Assembly (NCBI RefSeq): GCF_000027125.1
Contig: NC_017626.1
Length of the DNA: 64,000 nt
DNA from: Escherichia coli 042
GTDB lineage: Bacteria; Pseudomonadota; Gammaproteobacteria; Enterobacterales; Enterobacteriaceae
Direction: 5' to 3' (one strand)
In this document: piece by piece, positions 5,936 to 23,852 of the stretch
How positions within the stretch are numbered: the first letter of the stretch is position 1
Layout: the number at the start of each line of letters is the position of its first letter
Translations under genes and position numbers: made by a program
Notes under the pieces: generated by a model
Database searches by the model: none
What the model saw: only the letters and a program-made list of their open reading frames with translations
What the model was told of the DNA's origin: nothing

Positions 5936-6220
5936 TTGGAGATGACAATGGCGCATAATTTCAAATTTCGCAATTCTGATTCTGCCTTTGCCAGCAGGCA
6001 CGGGTGGCGTTCTCACGCATTCAAATATGACTGGTATCAGCACGATCCCTGTACTGAAGAACAGGCCGAATGGCTGATTCATAACTACCGCAGACGTGGA
6101 TATGAGTTTAGGAAAGCCCTCACCCTCGATTATCGTCACTGGATAATCTACGTCAGACTCCCTTATTCCGAACGCCCACCGCGTCCGTCCCGCACATTCC
6201 AGCAACGCATCTGGAGGTAA
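5936..6220 (+). CDS. Hypothetical phage protein (rem-like position)
   Basis: 94-aa ORF directly upstream of the DUF968 gene, same position as rem in Qin. Confidence 0.4.
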   Translation: MEMTMAHNFKFRNSDSAFASRHGWRSHAFKYDWYQHDPCTEEQAEWLIHNYRRRGYEFRKALTLDYRHWIIYVRLPYSERPPRPSRTFQQRIWR

Positions 6221-6221
6221 C

Positions 6222-7268
6222 GTGCGGGTATTACTTCGACCTGTTCTGGTACCGGAACTCGGGCTGGTGATCGTTAAGCCGGGCCGTGAATCCATGCCGG
6301 TATTCCACAATACCCGGGTACTGGTGGAGCCGGAACCGAAAAGCATGCGTAATCTGCCGTCCGGGGTCGTTCCTGCCGTTCGCCAGCCGCTGGCGGAGGA
6401 TAAATCATTACTGCCATTTTTCAGCGACGAACGAGTGATTCGTGCTGCTGGTGGCGCTGGCGCATTGTCTGATTGGTTACTGCGCCATGTTAAATCCTGC
6501 CAGTGGCCACACGGCGATTATCACCACAGTGAAACCGTCATTCACCGTTATGGTACCGGCGCAATGGTGTTGTGCTGGCACTGCGACAACCAGCTGCGCG
6601 ACCAGACCTCCGAATCACTCGGGCAACTTGCTCACCAAAACCTGTCTGCATGGATGATTGACGTCATACGCCATGCAATGAATGGCTCGCAGGAACGGGA
6701 ATTATCGCTGGCTGAATTATCCTGGTGGGCGGTCCGCAATCAGGTGGCGGACGCGCTACCGGAAGCGGTATTACGTCGTTCGCTGGGGTTGCGTGCGGAA
6801 AAAATCCGCTCAATGTACCGTGAAAGCGACATCGTACCGGGAGAGCAGACCGCCACCAGCATACTGAAGCAGCGCACAAAAAATCTTGCGCCGCTGCCTC
6901 ACGCCCACCAGCAAAACCCGCCACAGGAAGAGACGGTGGTCAGCATTGCCGTTGATCCTGAGTCTCCGGAATCTTTCATGAAACGACCTAAACGTCGCCG
7001 CTGGGTTAACGAGAAATACACACGCTGGGTGAAGACACAGCCGTGTGCGTGTTGTGGTAAGCCAGCCGACGATCCCCATCACCTGATTGGTCATGGTCAG
7101 GGCGGAATGGGGACAAAATCTCACGATATTTTCACGCTACCGCTGTGTCGGGAGCATCACAACGAGCTTCATGCGGATCCGCTGGCGTTCGAAGAAAAGC
7201 ATGGTTCTCAGGTTGATTTAATTTTTCGTTTTCTTGATCACGCCTTTGCAACTGGCGTGCTTGGGTAA
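6222..7268 (+). CDS. DUF968-family phage protein (YdfU-like)
   Basis: 348 aa; C-terminal Cys/His cluster CACCGK...HHLIGHGQGG...CREHHNELH recalled from YdfU-like prophage proteins; sits upstream of rusA/Q. Confidence 0.6.
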   Translation: MRVLLRPVLVPELGLVIVKPGRESMPVFHNTRVLVEPEPKSMRNLPSGVVPAVRQPLAEDKSLLPFFSDERVIRAAGGAGALSDWLLRHVKSCQWPHGDYHHSETVIHRYGTGAMVLCWHCDNQLRDQTSESLGQLAHQNLSAWMIDVIRHAMNGSQERELSLAELSWWAVRNQVADALPEAVLRRSLGLRAEKIRSMYRESDIVPGEQTATSILKQRTKNLAPLPHAHQQNPPQEETVVSIAVDPESPESFMKRPKRRRWVNEKYTRWVKTQPCACCGKPADDPHHLIGHGQGGMGTKSHDIFTLPLCREHHNELHADPLAFEEKHGSQVDLIFRFLDHAFATGVLG

Positions 7269-19298: not shown

Positions 19299-20887
19299 AA
19301 CGAACGCCTGTCCTGATTGATGTGAACGGCGTTCCGCTTCGTGATAGTCTCAGCTACAACGGGGGCGGTGCAGGATTTGGCGGGCAAATGGCTGAGTGGT
19401 TGCCACCGGCGCAGAGTGCCGATGCGGCCCTGCTGCCCGCGTTGCGTCTGGGGAATGCCCGGGCAGATGATCTGGTGCGCAATAACGGAATAGCGGCTAA
19501 TGCGGTGGCTCTGCATAAGGATCACATTGTCGGGCATATGTTTCTGATCAGCTACCGTCCGAACTGGCGCTGGCTGGGGATGCGGGAGACCGCAGCAAAA
19601 AGCTTTGTCGATGAGGTGGAGGCGGCCTGGTCGGAATACGCCGAAGGGATGTTTGGCGAGATCGACGTGGAAGGAAAACGCACCTTCACGGAATTTATCC
19701 GTGAAGGTGTGGGCGTTCATGCGTTTAACGGCGAAATCTTTGTGCAGCCGGTCTGGGATACGGAAACCACGCAGTTATTCCGTACGCGTTTTAAAGCCGT
19801 GAGTCCGAAACGGGTGGACACGCCTGGACACGGTATGGGGAACCGTTTTCTGCGGGCCGGTGTGGAGGTCGATCGATATGGCCGTGCCGTCGCGTACCAT
19901 ATCTGTGAGGATGATTTTCCGTTCTCTGGTAGTGGACGATGGGAACGGATCCCGCGTGAACTTCCCACCGGGCGTCCGGCCATGCTGCATATTTTCGAGC
20001 CGGTGGAGGACGGGCAGACCCGTGGGGCTAATCAGTTTTACAGCGTCATGGAACGGCTGAAGATGCTCGATTCCCTGCAGGCAACACAGCTTCAGTCGGC
20101 CATAGTGAAGGCGATGTATGCAGCGACGATTGAAAGTGAACTTGATACCGAAAAGGCCTTTGAATATATCGCCGGCGCGCCACAGGAGCAGAAGGATAAT
20201 CCGCTTATTAATATTCTGGAGAAGTTCTCCAGCTGGTATGACACGAATAACGTGACACTGGGCGGTGTCAAAATTCCGCACCTTTTCCCTGGTGATGATC
20301 TGAAACTACAGACTGCGCAGGATTCAGACAATGGATTTTCTGCGCTTGAACAGGCGCTGCTGCGGTATATCGCCGCCGGTCTTGGCGTTTCCTACGAACA
20401 GTTGTCCCGTGATTACTCGAAGGTCAGTTACTCAAGTGCCCGCGCCTCCGCCAATGAGTCGTGGCGCTATTTTATGGGGCGGCGAAAATTTATTGCGGCC
20501 CGGCTGGCCACGCAGATGTTTTCCTGCTGGCTGGAAGAGGCACTTCTTCGGGGGATTATTCGTCCGCCACGGGCACGTTTTGATTTTTATCAGGCGCGAT
20601 CAGCCTGGTCACGGGCAGAGTGGATTGGTGCCGGAAGAATGGCCATTGACGGGCTCAAGGAAGTCCAGGAATCAGTGATGCGCATTGAGGCCGGACTGAG
20701 CACGTATGAGAAAGAGCTGGCGCTGATGGGCGAGGATTATCAGGACATTTTCCGCCAGCAGGTCAGGGAATCTGCTGAGCGGCAAAAAGCCGGACTCTCA
20801 CGTCCGGTGTGGATAGCGCAGGCGTATCAGCAGCAGATAGCGGAGAGTCGCAGGCCGGAAGAGGAGACAACACCACGTGAGACGTAA
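19295..20887 (+). CDS. B: Portal protein B
   Basis: 530 aa, lambda gpB size and position. Confidence 0.9.
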   Translation: MKRTPVLIDVNGVPLRDSLSYNGGGAGFGGQMAEWLPPAQSADAALLPALRLGNARADDLVRNNGIAANAVALHKDHIVGHMFLISYRPNWRWLGMRETAAKSFVDEVEAAWSEYAEGMFGEIDVEGKRTFTEFIREGVGVHAFNGEIFVQPVWDTETTQLFRTRFKAVSPKRVDTPGHGMGNRFLRAGVEVDRYGRAVAYHICEDDFPFSGSGRWERIPRELPTGRPAMLHIFEPVEDGQTRGANQFYSVMERLKMLDSLQATQLQSAIVKAMYAATIESELDTEKAFEYIAGAPQEQKDNPLINILEKFSSWYDTNNVTLGGVKIPHLFPGDDLKLQTAQDSDNGFSALEQALLRYIAAGLGVSYEQLSRDYSKVSYSSARASANESWRYFMGRRKFIAARLATQMFSCWLEEALLRGIIRPPRARFDFYQARSAWSRAEWIGAGRMAIDGLKEVQESVMRIEAGLSTYEKELALMGEDYQDIFRQQVRESAERQKAGLSRPVWIAQAYQQQIAESRRPEEETTPRET

Positions 20888-22382
20888 TCTTTCACACATT
20901 ATTGCCGCAGCATTCAATGAACCGCTGCTTCTGGAGCCCGCCTATGCGCGGGTTTTCTTTTGCGCGCTCGGGCGCGAGATGGGGGCAGCAAGTCTTTCGG
21001 TACCACAACAGCAGGTACAGCTTGATGCTCCCGGAATGCTGGCTGAAACGGACGAGTATATGGCCGGAGGTAAACGACCGGCCCGTGTTTACCGGGTGGT
21101 GAACGGTATTGCTGTACTGCCGGTGACCGGCACGCTGGTGCACCGGCTGGGTGGTATGCGGCCATTTTCCGGAATGACAGGCTATGACGGCATTGTCGCC
21201 TGTCTTCAGCAGGCAATGGCGGATAGCCAGGTGCGGGGCGTACTGCTGGACATTGACAGTCCGGGCGGGCAGGCCGCCGGCGCGTTTGACTGCGCTGACA
21301 TGATTTACCGCCTCCGTCAGCAGAAGCCGGTCTGGGCACTGTGCAATGACACGGCCTGTTCTGCAGCCATGCTGCTGGCGTCTGCCTGCTCCCGACGGCT
21401 GGTTACCCAGACATCCCGTATCGGCTCCATTGGCGTGATGATGAGCCATGTCAGCTATGCCGGTCATCTGGCGCAGGCCGGTGTGGATATCACGCTGATT
21501 TACTCAGGGGCGCACAAGGTGGATGGCAATCAGTTTGAAGCGTTGCCGGCAGAGGTTCGCCAGGACATGCAGCAGCGGATTGATGCGGCGCGCCGGATGT
21601 TTGCCGAAAAAGTGGCGATGTTTACCGGTCTGTCTGTTGATGCAGTCACGGGAACAGAGGCCGCCGTTTTTGAAGGTCAGTCCGGCATTGAGGCCGGGCT
21701 GGCGGATGAATTAATCAATGCGTCGGATGCCATCAGTGTGATGGCCACGGCGCTGAACAGTAATGTCAGAGGAGGCACTATGCCGCAATTAACTGCAACG
21801 GAAGCCGCCGTGCAGGAGAACCAGCGAGTGATGGGGATCCTGACATGCCAGGAAGCGAAAGGACGTGAACAGCTTGCCACGATGCTGGCAGGGCAACAGG
21901 GCATGAGCGTTGAACAGGCCCGGGCGATTCTGGCCGCGGCGGCACCGCAGCAGCCGGTGGCATCCGCGCAGAGTGAAGCCGATCGCATTATGGCGTGTGA
22001 AGAAGCGAACGGTCGTGAACAACTGGCGGCAACGCTGGCGGCGATGCCGGAGATGACGGTGGAAAAAGCCCGCCCGATCCTGGCGGCTGCACCACTGGCG
22101 GATGCCGGGCCCTCACTTCGTGATCAGATCATGGCCCTGGATGAGGCAAAAGGGGCAGAAGCGCAGGCTGAAAAACTGGCGGCCTGCCCGGGAATGACCG
22201 TGGAGAACGCCCGGGCTGTGCTGGCTGCGGGATCAGGTAAGGCCGAACCGGTCTCTGCATCCACAACCGCCCTGTTTGAACATTTCATGGCGAATCATTC
22301 ACCGGCAGCGGTGCGGGGTGGCGTGTCACAGACGTCAGCAGACGGTGATGCGGACGTGAAAATGCTCATGGCCATGCCATGA
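20877..22382 (+). CDS. C: Head protease/scaffold C (S49 peptidase; Nu3-like C-terminus with triplicated module)
   Basis: N-terminus FNEPLLLEPAYARVFFCAL as in lambda C; three tandem ~42-aa repeats near the C-terminus. Confidence 0.85.
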   Translation: MRRNLSHIIAAAFNEPLLLEPAYARVFFCALGREMGAASLSVPQQQVQLDAPGMLAETDEYMAGGKRPARVYRVVNGIAVLPVTGTLVHRLGGMRPFSGMTGYDGIVACLQQAMADSQVRGVLLDIDSPGGQAAGAFDCADMIYRLRQQKPVWALCNDTACSAAMLLASACSRRLVTQTSRIGSIGVMMSHVSYAGHLAQAGVDITLIYSGAHKVDGNQFEALPAEVRQDMQQRIDAARRMFAEKVAMFTGLSVDAVTGTEAAVFEGQSGIEAGLADELINASDAISVMATALNSNVRGGTMPQLTATEAAVQENQRVMGILTCQEAKGREQLATMLAGQQGMSVEQARAILAAAAPQQPVASAQSEADRIMACEEANGREQLAATLAAMPEMTVEKARPILAAAPLADAGPSLRDQIMALDEAKGAEAQAEKLAACPGMTVENARAVLAAGSGKAEPVSASTTALFEHFMANHSPAAVRGGVSQTSADGDADVKMLMAMP

Positions 22383-22418: not shown

Positions 22419-22766
22419 ATGGTGACGAAAACCATCACTGAACAGCGTGCGGAAGTACGTATTTTTGCCGGTAATGATCCGGCTCATACCGCCACAGGCA
22501 GCAGCGGGATTTCTTCTGCAACACCGGCTCTGACGCCCCTGATGCTGGATGAAGCCACCGGGAAACTGGTGGTCTGGGATGGACAGAAAGCCGGTAGTGC
22601 GGTTGGCATACTGGTACTGCCGCTTGAAGGCACAGAGACGGTGCTGACCTATTACAAGTCGGGGACCTTTGCGACGGAGGCAATCCGCTGGCCTGACAGT
22701 GTGGATGAACACAAAAAGGCAAATGCCTTTGCCGGCACAGCCCTGAGTCACGCGGCTCTGCCGTAA
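22419..22766 (+). CDS. D: Head decoration protein D
   Basis: 115 aa; DPAHTAT...TPLMLD...WDG...YKSGTF motifs as in lambda gpD. Confidence 0.9.
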   Translation: MVTKTITEQRAEVRIFAGNDPAHTATGSSGISSATPALTPLMLDEATGKLVVWDGQKAGSAVGILVLPLEGTETVLTYYKSGTFATEAIRWPDSVDEHKKANAFAGTALSHAALP

Positions 22767-22823
22767 CACGTTATCAGGCCACCATGGTGGCCTGACTGAT
22801 TTCTGAATGAAAGGAACTGATTT

Positions 22824-23852
22824 ATGGGATTGTTTACGACCCGCCAGTTACTCGGTTATACCGAACAAAAAGTTAAATTCCGTGCGCTATTTCTGGAGCT
22901 GTTTTTCCGCCGTACGGTGAATTTCCACACCGAAGAGGTGATGCTGGACAAAATTACCGGAAAAACGCCGGTGGCGGCCTATGTCTCCCCGATCGTTGAA
23001 GGAAAAGTGCTGCGCCATCGTGGTGGTGAAACCCGCGTGTTGCGTCCGGGCTACGTCAAGCCGAAACACGAATTTAATTACCAGCAGGCGGTTGAGCGCC
23101 TTCCCGGTGAAGATCCGGCTCAGCTGAACGACCCGGCCTACCGTCGTCTGCGTATCATTACCGATAACCTCAAACAGGAAGAGCACGCTATTGTCCAGGT
23201 GGAAGAAATGCAGGCGGTGAATGCCGTGCTGTATGGCAAATACACCATGGAAGGGGAACAGTTTGACACGGTCGAGGTGGATTTCGGACGCTCTGAAGGA
23301 AATAACATTGAGCAGGCCGACGGTAAAAAATGGTCTGAGCAGGACCGTGATACGTTTGATCCGACGCATGATATTGACCTTTACTGCGATCAGGCCAGCG
23401 GTCTTGTGAATATTGCCATTATGGACGGTACGGTCTGGCGTCTGCTGAATGGCTTTAAGCTGTTCCGCGAAAAACTGGATACCCGTCGCGGCTCAAATTC
23501 ACAACTCGAAACGGCAGTGAAAGACCTGGGGGCGGTGGTGTCTTTCAAAGGGTATTACGGTGATCTGGCCATTGTGGTGGCGAAAACGTCTTATGTGGCA
23601 GACGACGGTACCGAAAAACGTTATCTGCCGGAGGGCACACTGGTCCTGGGGAATACGGCAGCAGAGGGCATTCGTTGCTATGGTGCCATTCAGGATGCGC
23701 AGGCGTTGTCCGAAGGTGTGGTGGCCTCTTCCCGTTATCCGAAACACTGGCTGACTGTGGGCGATCCGGCCCGTGAATTCACCATGACGCAGTCCGCACC
23801 GCTGATGGTGCTGCCGGATCCGGATGAGTTTGTGGTGGTGCAGGTGAAATAA
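22824..23852 (+). CDS. E: Major capsid protein E
   Basis: 342 aa, lambda gpE size and position. Confidence 0.9.
   Translation: MGLFTTRQLLGYTEQKVKFRALFLELFFRRTVNFHTEEVMLDKITGKTPVAAYVSPIVEGKVLRHRGGETRVLRPGYVKPKHEFNYQQAVERLPGEDPAQLNDPAYRRLRIITDNLKQEEHAIVQVEEMQAVNAVLYGKYTMEGEQFDTVEVDFGRSEGNNIEQADGKKWSEQDRDTFDPTHDIDLYCDQASGLVNIAIMDGTVWRLLNGFKLFREKLDTRRGSNSQLETAVKDLGAVVSFKGYYGDLAIVVAKTSYVADDGTEKRYLPEGTLVLGNTAAEGIRCYGAIQDAQALSEGVVASSRYPKHWLTVGDPAREFTMTQSAPLMVLPDPDEFVVVQVK

Follow-up and report, generated by a model that had tools for sequence, protein, structure and literature searches.

The gene described here lies between the portal and decoration genes in the window, the whole 64,000-nucleotide stretch of Escherichia coli 042 DNA that was analysed. 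It overlaps the 3′ end of the portal gene. Its 501-aa product matches the PHROG profile phrog_53, 'head maturation protease', with E = 2e-228. The gene order portal, C homologue, decoration and major capsid is lambda-like, both in the open reading frames of the window and in the RefSeq annotation of an identical prophage. The features of the locus are collected in Table 1.

The N-terminal two thirds of the protein are, by domain assignment, an S49 (SppA-type) serine protease. Pfam Peptidase_S49 (PF01343) covers aa 146–293 with 119.6 bits (E = 1.5e-34), above its gathering score of 24.9, and TIGR00706 (SppA_dom) matches aa 78–291. A PDB sequence search returned SppA and ClpP for the protease part, with the SppA structures 3rst and 4kwb aligned to aa 77–290 (E about 4e-16); in the same search the tail was without a match. 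RefSeq names the identical gene only 'S49 family peptidase'. The nested scaffold gene and the repeats are absent from that annotation.

Table 1. Features of the head protease/scaffold locus in window coordinates, with the matching boxes of coliphage 21.
Feature	Position	Strand	Description
Gene 5 / lambda C homologue, head protease-scaffold fusion	20877..22382	+	501 aa, GTG start; ORF listing
S49 (SppA-like) serine protease domain	21108..21755	+	aa ~78–293
Shine-Dalgarno-like sequence	21768..21775	+	AGAGGAGG; 4 nt 5′ of the in-frame ATG at 21780 (Met302)
Nested in-frame gene (phage 21 gene 6, lambda Nu3 analogue)	21780..22382	+	predicted 200-aa scaffold: three modules and C-terminal tail
Module 1	21816–21950	+	aa 314–358; profile match E = 5e-23 (aa 314–356); phage 21 Tri1 box maps to 21847–21950
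Module 2	21975–22097	+	aa 367–407; profile match E = 1e-22; phage 21 'Tri box' (Tri2) maps to 21987–22097
Module 3	22116–22241	+	aa 414–455; profile match E = 8e-22 (aa 414–453); phage 21 Tri3 box maps to 22128–22241
C-terminal tail	22242..22379	+	aa 456–501; common to protease and nested scaffold
Hairpin	22774–22795		TCAGGCCACCATGGTGGCCTGA; perfect 9-bp stem
Major capsid protein gene (phage 21 gp7 / lambda E homologue)	22824..23852	+	342 aa; ORF listing

Correspondence with coliphage 21 and the nested reading frame

A tblastn search of a phage collection with the tail found the record M81255.1, 'Bacteriophage 21 head gene operon'. Gene 6 of this record carries three repeat_region features, named 'Tri1 box', 'Tri box' and 'Tri3 box', each with the remark 'function unknown; putative'. 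CDS 6 encodes 200 aa, has its own putative ribosome-binding site and is nested inside gene 5. Phage 21 gene 5 is 97.9% identical to the window gene in nucleotides and 97.6% in amino acids, over 1506 nt and 501 aa without gaps. It differs by 12 amino acid substitutions, 9 of them in the tail; module 2 ends in AAAPLA in the window and in AASPQA in phage 21. A structural difference was not found. Length, ribosome-binding site and internal ATG are the same, the boxes are colinear and each lies inside one module, and the flanking decoration (shp) and capsid genes are 21-type. By this comparison, the window gene encodes the head protease/scaffold protein of a phage-21-type lambdoid prophage, and its modules are the Tri boxes.

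The three-module feature is already known. It has been annotated in the public phage 21 record for decades, and its detection here is an ordinary rediscovery. The Tri-box record presumably corresponds to Smith & Feiss 1993, Gene 126:1. A search of one literature collection on phage 21 head genes, Tri boxes and Nu3 repeats yielded no relevant paper.

The gene 6 CDS of M81255.1 maps exactly to the nested frame of the window, and its putative ribosome-binding site falls at the site equivalent to the Shine-Dalgarno-like sequence. Independent gene callers predict the same 200-aa product (P0001, a cluster of 154 member sequences). A Shine-Dalgarno sequence and an ATG just past the protease domain are also present in phage 21, Gifsy-1 (Met302), lambda (M309), phi80 (M311) and chi (M305). 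The gene probably makes two products with a common C-terminus, the full-length S49 protease and a 200-aa scaffold starting at Met302. Counted from the conserved internal Met, the tail has 200 aa in the window protein versus 131 aa in lambda, and the 'expanded scaffold domain' suggested by the sequence-only reading is a fair description.

The RefSeq lambda record NC_001416 starts Nu3 at Met239 of C, for a product of 201 aa. Met239 is not preceded by a Shine-Dalgarno-like sequence, and the position is an Ile in the window protein and in phage 21. This annotated start may be too far upstream; the conserved Shine-Dalgarno sequence and ATG point to Met309 and a 131-aa product.

The three modules and their predicted fold

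The sequence-only reading had proposed three tandem copies of a ~42-aa module in the C-terminal, Nu3-like part of a lambda C homologue. The peptides it quoted were found exactly in the 501-aa ORF. A module profile made from an alignment of independent modules taken from diverse relatives (A1) matched the protein three times. Aligned locally in pairs with BLOSUM62, the modules score 103, 82 and 97. Shuffled sequences of the same composition have a mean of 24–26 with a standard deviation of about 5, which corresponds to z = 12–17, and the observed scores were not attained in any of 2000 shuffles. The similarity is not explained by the Ala-rich composition. The location was supported by the S49 domain (aa 146–293), which precedes the modules, and by the context of portal and capsid genes. 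The proposed span of 21780–22200 had to be corrected at both ends: it starts at the internal ATG of the nested gene and not at module 1, and it stops ~40 nt short of the end of module 3.

The modules repeat with a period of 47–49 aa and have a conserved core of about 35–45 aa. Module 1 has a three-residue insertion, VMG, and the single module of lambda likewise. The single-copy PHROG profiles phrog_8399, 8940 and 17040 (Nu3-type scaffold) each match the tail in three stretches; among them, phrog_8940 is the Nu3 profile. Pfam gave nothing in aa 295–501 at E <= 1, and NCBIfam left the tail unmatched, so that the automatically built PHROGs alone cover the module.

The repeat is visible at the protein level only. 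Tandem Repeats Finder and a seed-based DNA repeat search did not detect the modules and returned just short chance-like matches. The DNA identity between the modules of the window is 59–68%, with 36–42% at third codon positions, and the amino acid identity is 53–61%.

The C-terminal tail behind module 3 consists of a predicted helix (ALFEHFMANHSP), an acidic stretch of low confidence and the conserved terminus LLMAMP. Its conservation is moderate, with a majority fraction of 0.48–0.57.

AlphaFold2 predicted a single module, with an alignment of 75 sequences, as a three-helix bundle with a pLDDT of 91.6 and a pTM of 0.73. The helices comprise model residues 3–17, 25–32 and 39–48. In the model of the whole tail, three separate helical units have a pLDDT of 75–83, the linkers are below 50 and the pTM is 0.27. 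This low pTM leaves the relative arrangement of the units undefined; the modelled tail looks like beads on a string. The C-terminal helix appears at model residues 166–179, which are aa 461–474. Foldseek found nothing with E < 1 when the whole-tail model was compared with the PDB. Similarity to the coat-binding helix-turn-helix of P22-type scaffolds, that is, to the solved P22 C-terminal helix-loop-helix and its basic surface, was not found. Tandem three-helix-bundle binding modules, as in the staphylococcal protein A domains and the streptococcal GA modules, count among the closest known systems. Going by the title of a 2011 paper by Medina et al., lambda gpNu3 is reportedly intrinsically disordered. 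The predicted three-helix fold may therefore be induced by binding or be marginally stable.

Relatives, copy number and age of the triplication

Lambda C, taken from NC_001416, carries the module once, at aa 357–401 (ENSRIMGILNCEEAHGREEQARVLAETPGMTVKTARRILAAAPQ; profile match E = 4e-23). The sequence-only reading was right in giving lambda a single module. Lambda C/Nu3 shares with the window gene the S49 protease, the C-terminal scaffold tail, the nested in-frame scaffold gene and the genome position. The protease regions are 61% identical. The lambda module is closest to module 1 of the window, with 58–61% identity. Lambda C has a low-complexity spacer of ~48 aa between protease and module, whereas the window protein is without it. 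The lambda tail LDRLMQGAP...DLLNTPV is only weakly similar to the C-terminal tail of the window protein.

The gpC homologue of the Salmonella prophage Gifsy-1, STM2605, resembles the window protein more closely in layout. It has 498 aa, three modules in the same order and a Shine-Dalgarno sequence with ATG at Met302. Yet its tail is just 56.5% identical to that of the window, and the linker lengths differ. Three modules are thus present in the window, phage 21 and Gifsy-1, and one in lambda, phi80, Vibrio phage HY01 and Salmonella phage chi. These four one-module phages have capsid proteins of similar length (341–354 aa). A relation of module number to capsid size was ruled out, as the E proteins of the one- and three-module phages compared all have 341–354 aa. 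The listed genome records of both groups have 46–50 kb.

The three-module gene is very widespread among prophages of E. coli and Salmonella and not peculiar to this window. Tail DNA of the three-module, phage 21 type was present in 1869 of 5426 complete E. coli genomes, at up to five places per genome, and tail DNA of the one-module, lambda type in 3221 of the 5426. At least 80% of the three-module tail was kept in 1869 of the 1874 matching E. coli records.

Among relatives, the module copy number ranges from one to four. The variants came from a word-indexed homologue search with the tail, which returned mostly gene fragments and served to find copy-number variants, not as an unbiased census. 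Modules 2–4 of P0025, a four-module variant of E. coli, are 80–85% identical to each other, which indicates a recent, independent expansion. The two-module proteins P0013, P0022 and P0104 of E. coli derive from the three-module form by deletions whose junctions fall within modules. Some variants of these kinds may be pseudogenes in decaying prophages. More distant two-module proteins are either fused to a protease (P0137) or small and protease-less (P0091, P0102). In P0119, P0120, P0130 and P0107, a C protein with the lambda module is joined to pieces of the lambda portal, terminase or tape measure or to unrelated leaders. These chimeras are probably cloning-vector or misassembly artefacts, and they raise the count of one-module clusters.

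The age of the triplication was addressed with an alignment of 16 three-module tails that are 44–99% identical to that of the window (alignment A2). Modules at the same position in different proteins have a mean identity of 0.74, 0.64 and 0.60 for positions 1, 2 and 3, while modules at different positions within one protein have 0.48–0.56. This positional orthology, together with the near-random third codon positions, makes the triplication old. The three modules of Gifsy-1 with a tail of such low identity show that it arose before the E. coli and Salmonella prophage lineages diverged. The modules are conserved (majority fraction 0.73–0.84) and almost free of gaps; the linkers have a fraction of 0.31–0.41 and many indels. 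A near-invariant pattern, EAKGRE...LA...A..L, is retained at all three positions across E. coli, Salmonella and more distant lineages. The triplication goes back to an old tandem duplication of the module, which is single-copy in lambda and most relatives. It has been kept by selection on the protein and not by recent duplication or gene conversion.

The module belongs to a large family. A search of 1.84 billion representative proteins with the module profile gave 1578 clusters at E <= 1e-3. In the best 150 of these 1578 clusters, the module occurs once in 137, twice in 10 and three times in 3. The same best 150 comprise fusions with S49 proteases and proteins of ~100–200 aa without a protease domain, and the latter group contains fragments and nested-ORF calls. 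One small protease-less gene, on contig L007, is located directly 5′ of head-decoration and major-head genes, in the order of lambda C/Nu3, D and E. Synteny of the small proteins refers to this contig only; the others are mostly very short, and small ORFs may be nested in a longer gene clipped by the contig end. In BFVD, the predicted fold of the module recurs in other S49 prohead proteases.

About 1600 sequence clusters carry the module, yet no curated domain model exists for it. The discovery value of the repeat itself is small: it has long been annotated in phage 21, and thousands of sequenced E. coli and Salmonella genomes contain it. New here are the old age of the triplication and its conservation in protein but not in DNA, the predicted three-helix module, the range of one to four copies, and the recognition of a mostly single-copy family that has no Pfam or NCBIfam model.

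A stretch of a Logan contig (SRR25568644; L006, 1–12588) encodes an integrase and many small genes. At 6001–6588 lies a gene for a 195-aa, two-module scaffold-like protein without a protease domain, accompanied by a gene for a 297-aa protein without a PHROG match and then by a tape-measure gene. The stretch looks like a small prophage or satellite-like element with the same scaffold module and no recognisable protease or capsid gene nearby.

Possible function of the modules in head assembly

Lambda Nu3 is a scaffold that interacts with E, with C and with itself (PMC3224144). It is needed for portal incorporation and is thought to be degraded by C (PMC3224144). The best explanation of the locus as a whole, to which we assign a probability of about 0.85, is a phage-21-type protease/scaffold gene with two products, in which the three Tri modules would act as interaction units. 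The shared tail consists of three paralogous modules of ~45 residues, short variable linkers rich in Pro, Ala, Ser and Gln, and a conserved C-terminal helix. As interaction units of the scaffold, the modules may bind to the major capsid protein on its inner face, to other scaffold molecules or to both, and with three copies the scaffold would gain valency or length. The shared tail may carry the protease into the procapsid. The exposed linkers may be the cleavage sites of the protease, by which the scaffold would be freed to leave the head.

Action of the boxes in DNA or RNA, as repeated binding sites, recombination targets or translational signals, could be suspected from the repeat_region features of the GenBank record. 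DNA repeat finders miss the boxes, however, at a nucleotide identity of 59–68% and 36–42% in third positions, and conservation across relatives follows the reading frame and amino acid properties. This codon-position pattern excludes an action at the DNA level in practice. The extra modules might also be functionally neutral. In this reading, unequal recombination would have duplicated a stretch whose repetition the flexible scaffold tolerates, and the copies would add spacer length but no binding of their own. One-module phages manage with capsid proteins of similar length, and three copies are therefore not required for such a capsid. The variation from one to four copies fits neutrality too, as do the two-module deletion derivatives P0013, P0022 and P0104 with their junctions inside modules and the disorder reported, by title, for lambda Nu3. 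Yet the EAKGRE...LA...A..L pattern is kept at all three positions while the linkers drift with indels, and 53–61% amino acid identity persists between copies whose third codon positions are nearly randomised. Neutral copies would be expected to decay or vanish, but 1869 of 1874 E. coli records keep at least 80% of the tail. We consider neutrality improbable.

The binding partners might be divided differently within the tail. The modules could mediate association of scaffold with scaffold or portal, in a core or initiator complex, and the C-terminal ~45 residues could bind the capsid protein. Self-association of lambda Nu3, its interaction with C and its role in portal incorporation are in line with this division (PMC3224144). 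The C-terminal helix and terminus are conserved and common to all copy-number variants. In P22 and other phages, the coat-binding part of the scaffold is its extreme C-terminus, which provides a precedent. However, conservation is higher in the module than in the C-terminal tail (majority fraction 0.73–0.84 versus 0.48–0.57). It is also the sole element common to the whole family, including the small protease-less proteins with their differing tails. Such a division of tasks is doubtful, though it deserves more credence than neutral copies.

A more general proposal on the Tri modules can be put forward tentatively. The Tri module may be an autonomous three-helix bundle and the universal capsid- or scaffold-binding unit of S49-linked scaffolds, with a copy number that was expanded independently several times and a valency open to selection. 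The expansions would be the old triplication of the 21 and Gifsy prophages, the recent four copies in another E. coli lineage and the two copies in distant fused and small protease-less proteins. If this is true, the valency of the scaffold would tune nucleation, fidelity or kinetics of procapsid assembly. Lambda with one module and 21 with three would then form a matched pair. Both phages are closely related and genetically tractable and have co-linear head genes, which makes them a natural pair to study the effect of scaffold valency on capsid assembly.

The scaffold presumably assembles with the product of the major capsid gene downstream. RefSeq labels this E homologue 'major capsid protein'; its identity is 94% with phage 21 gp7, 88% with Gifsy-1 E and 62% with lambda E. 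The hairpin listed in Table 1 is followed by a T-rich stretch and was flagged as terminator-like by a scan. It sits in the gap between the end of the decoration gene at 22766 and the start of the major capsid gene at 22824. By attenuation or through mRNA stability, it could set how much decoration protein is made relative to capsid protein.
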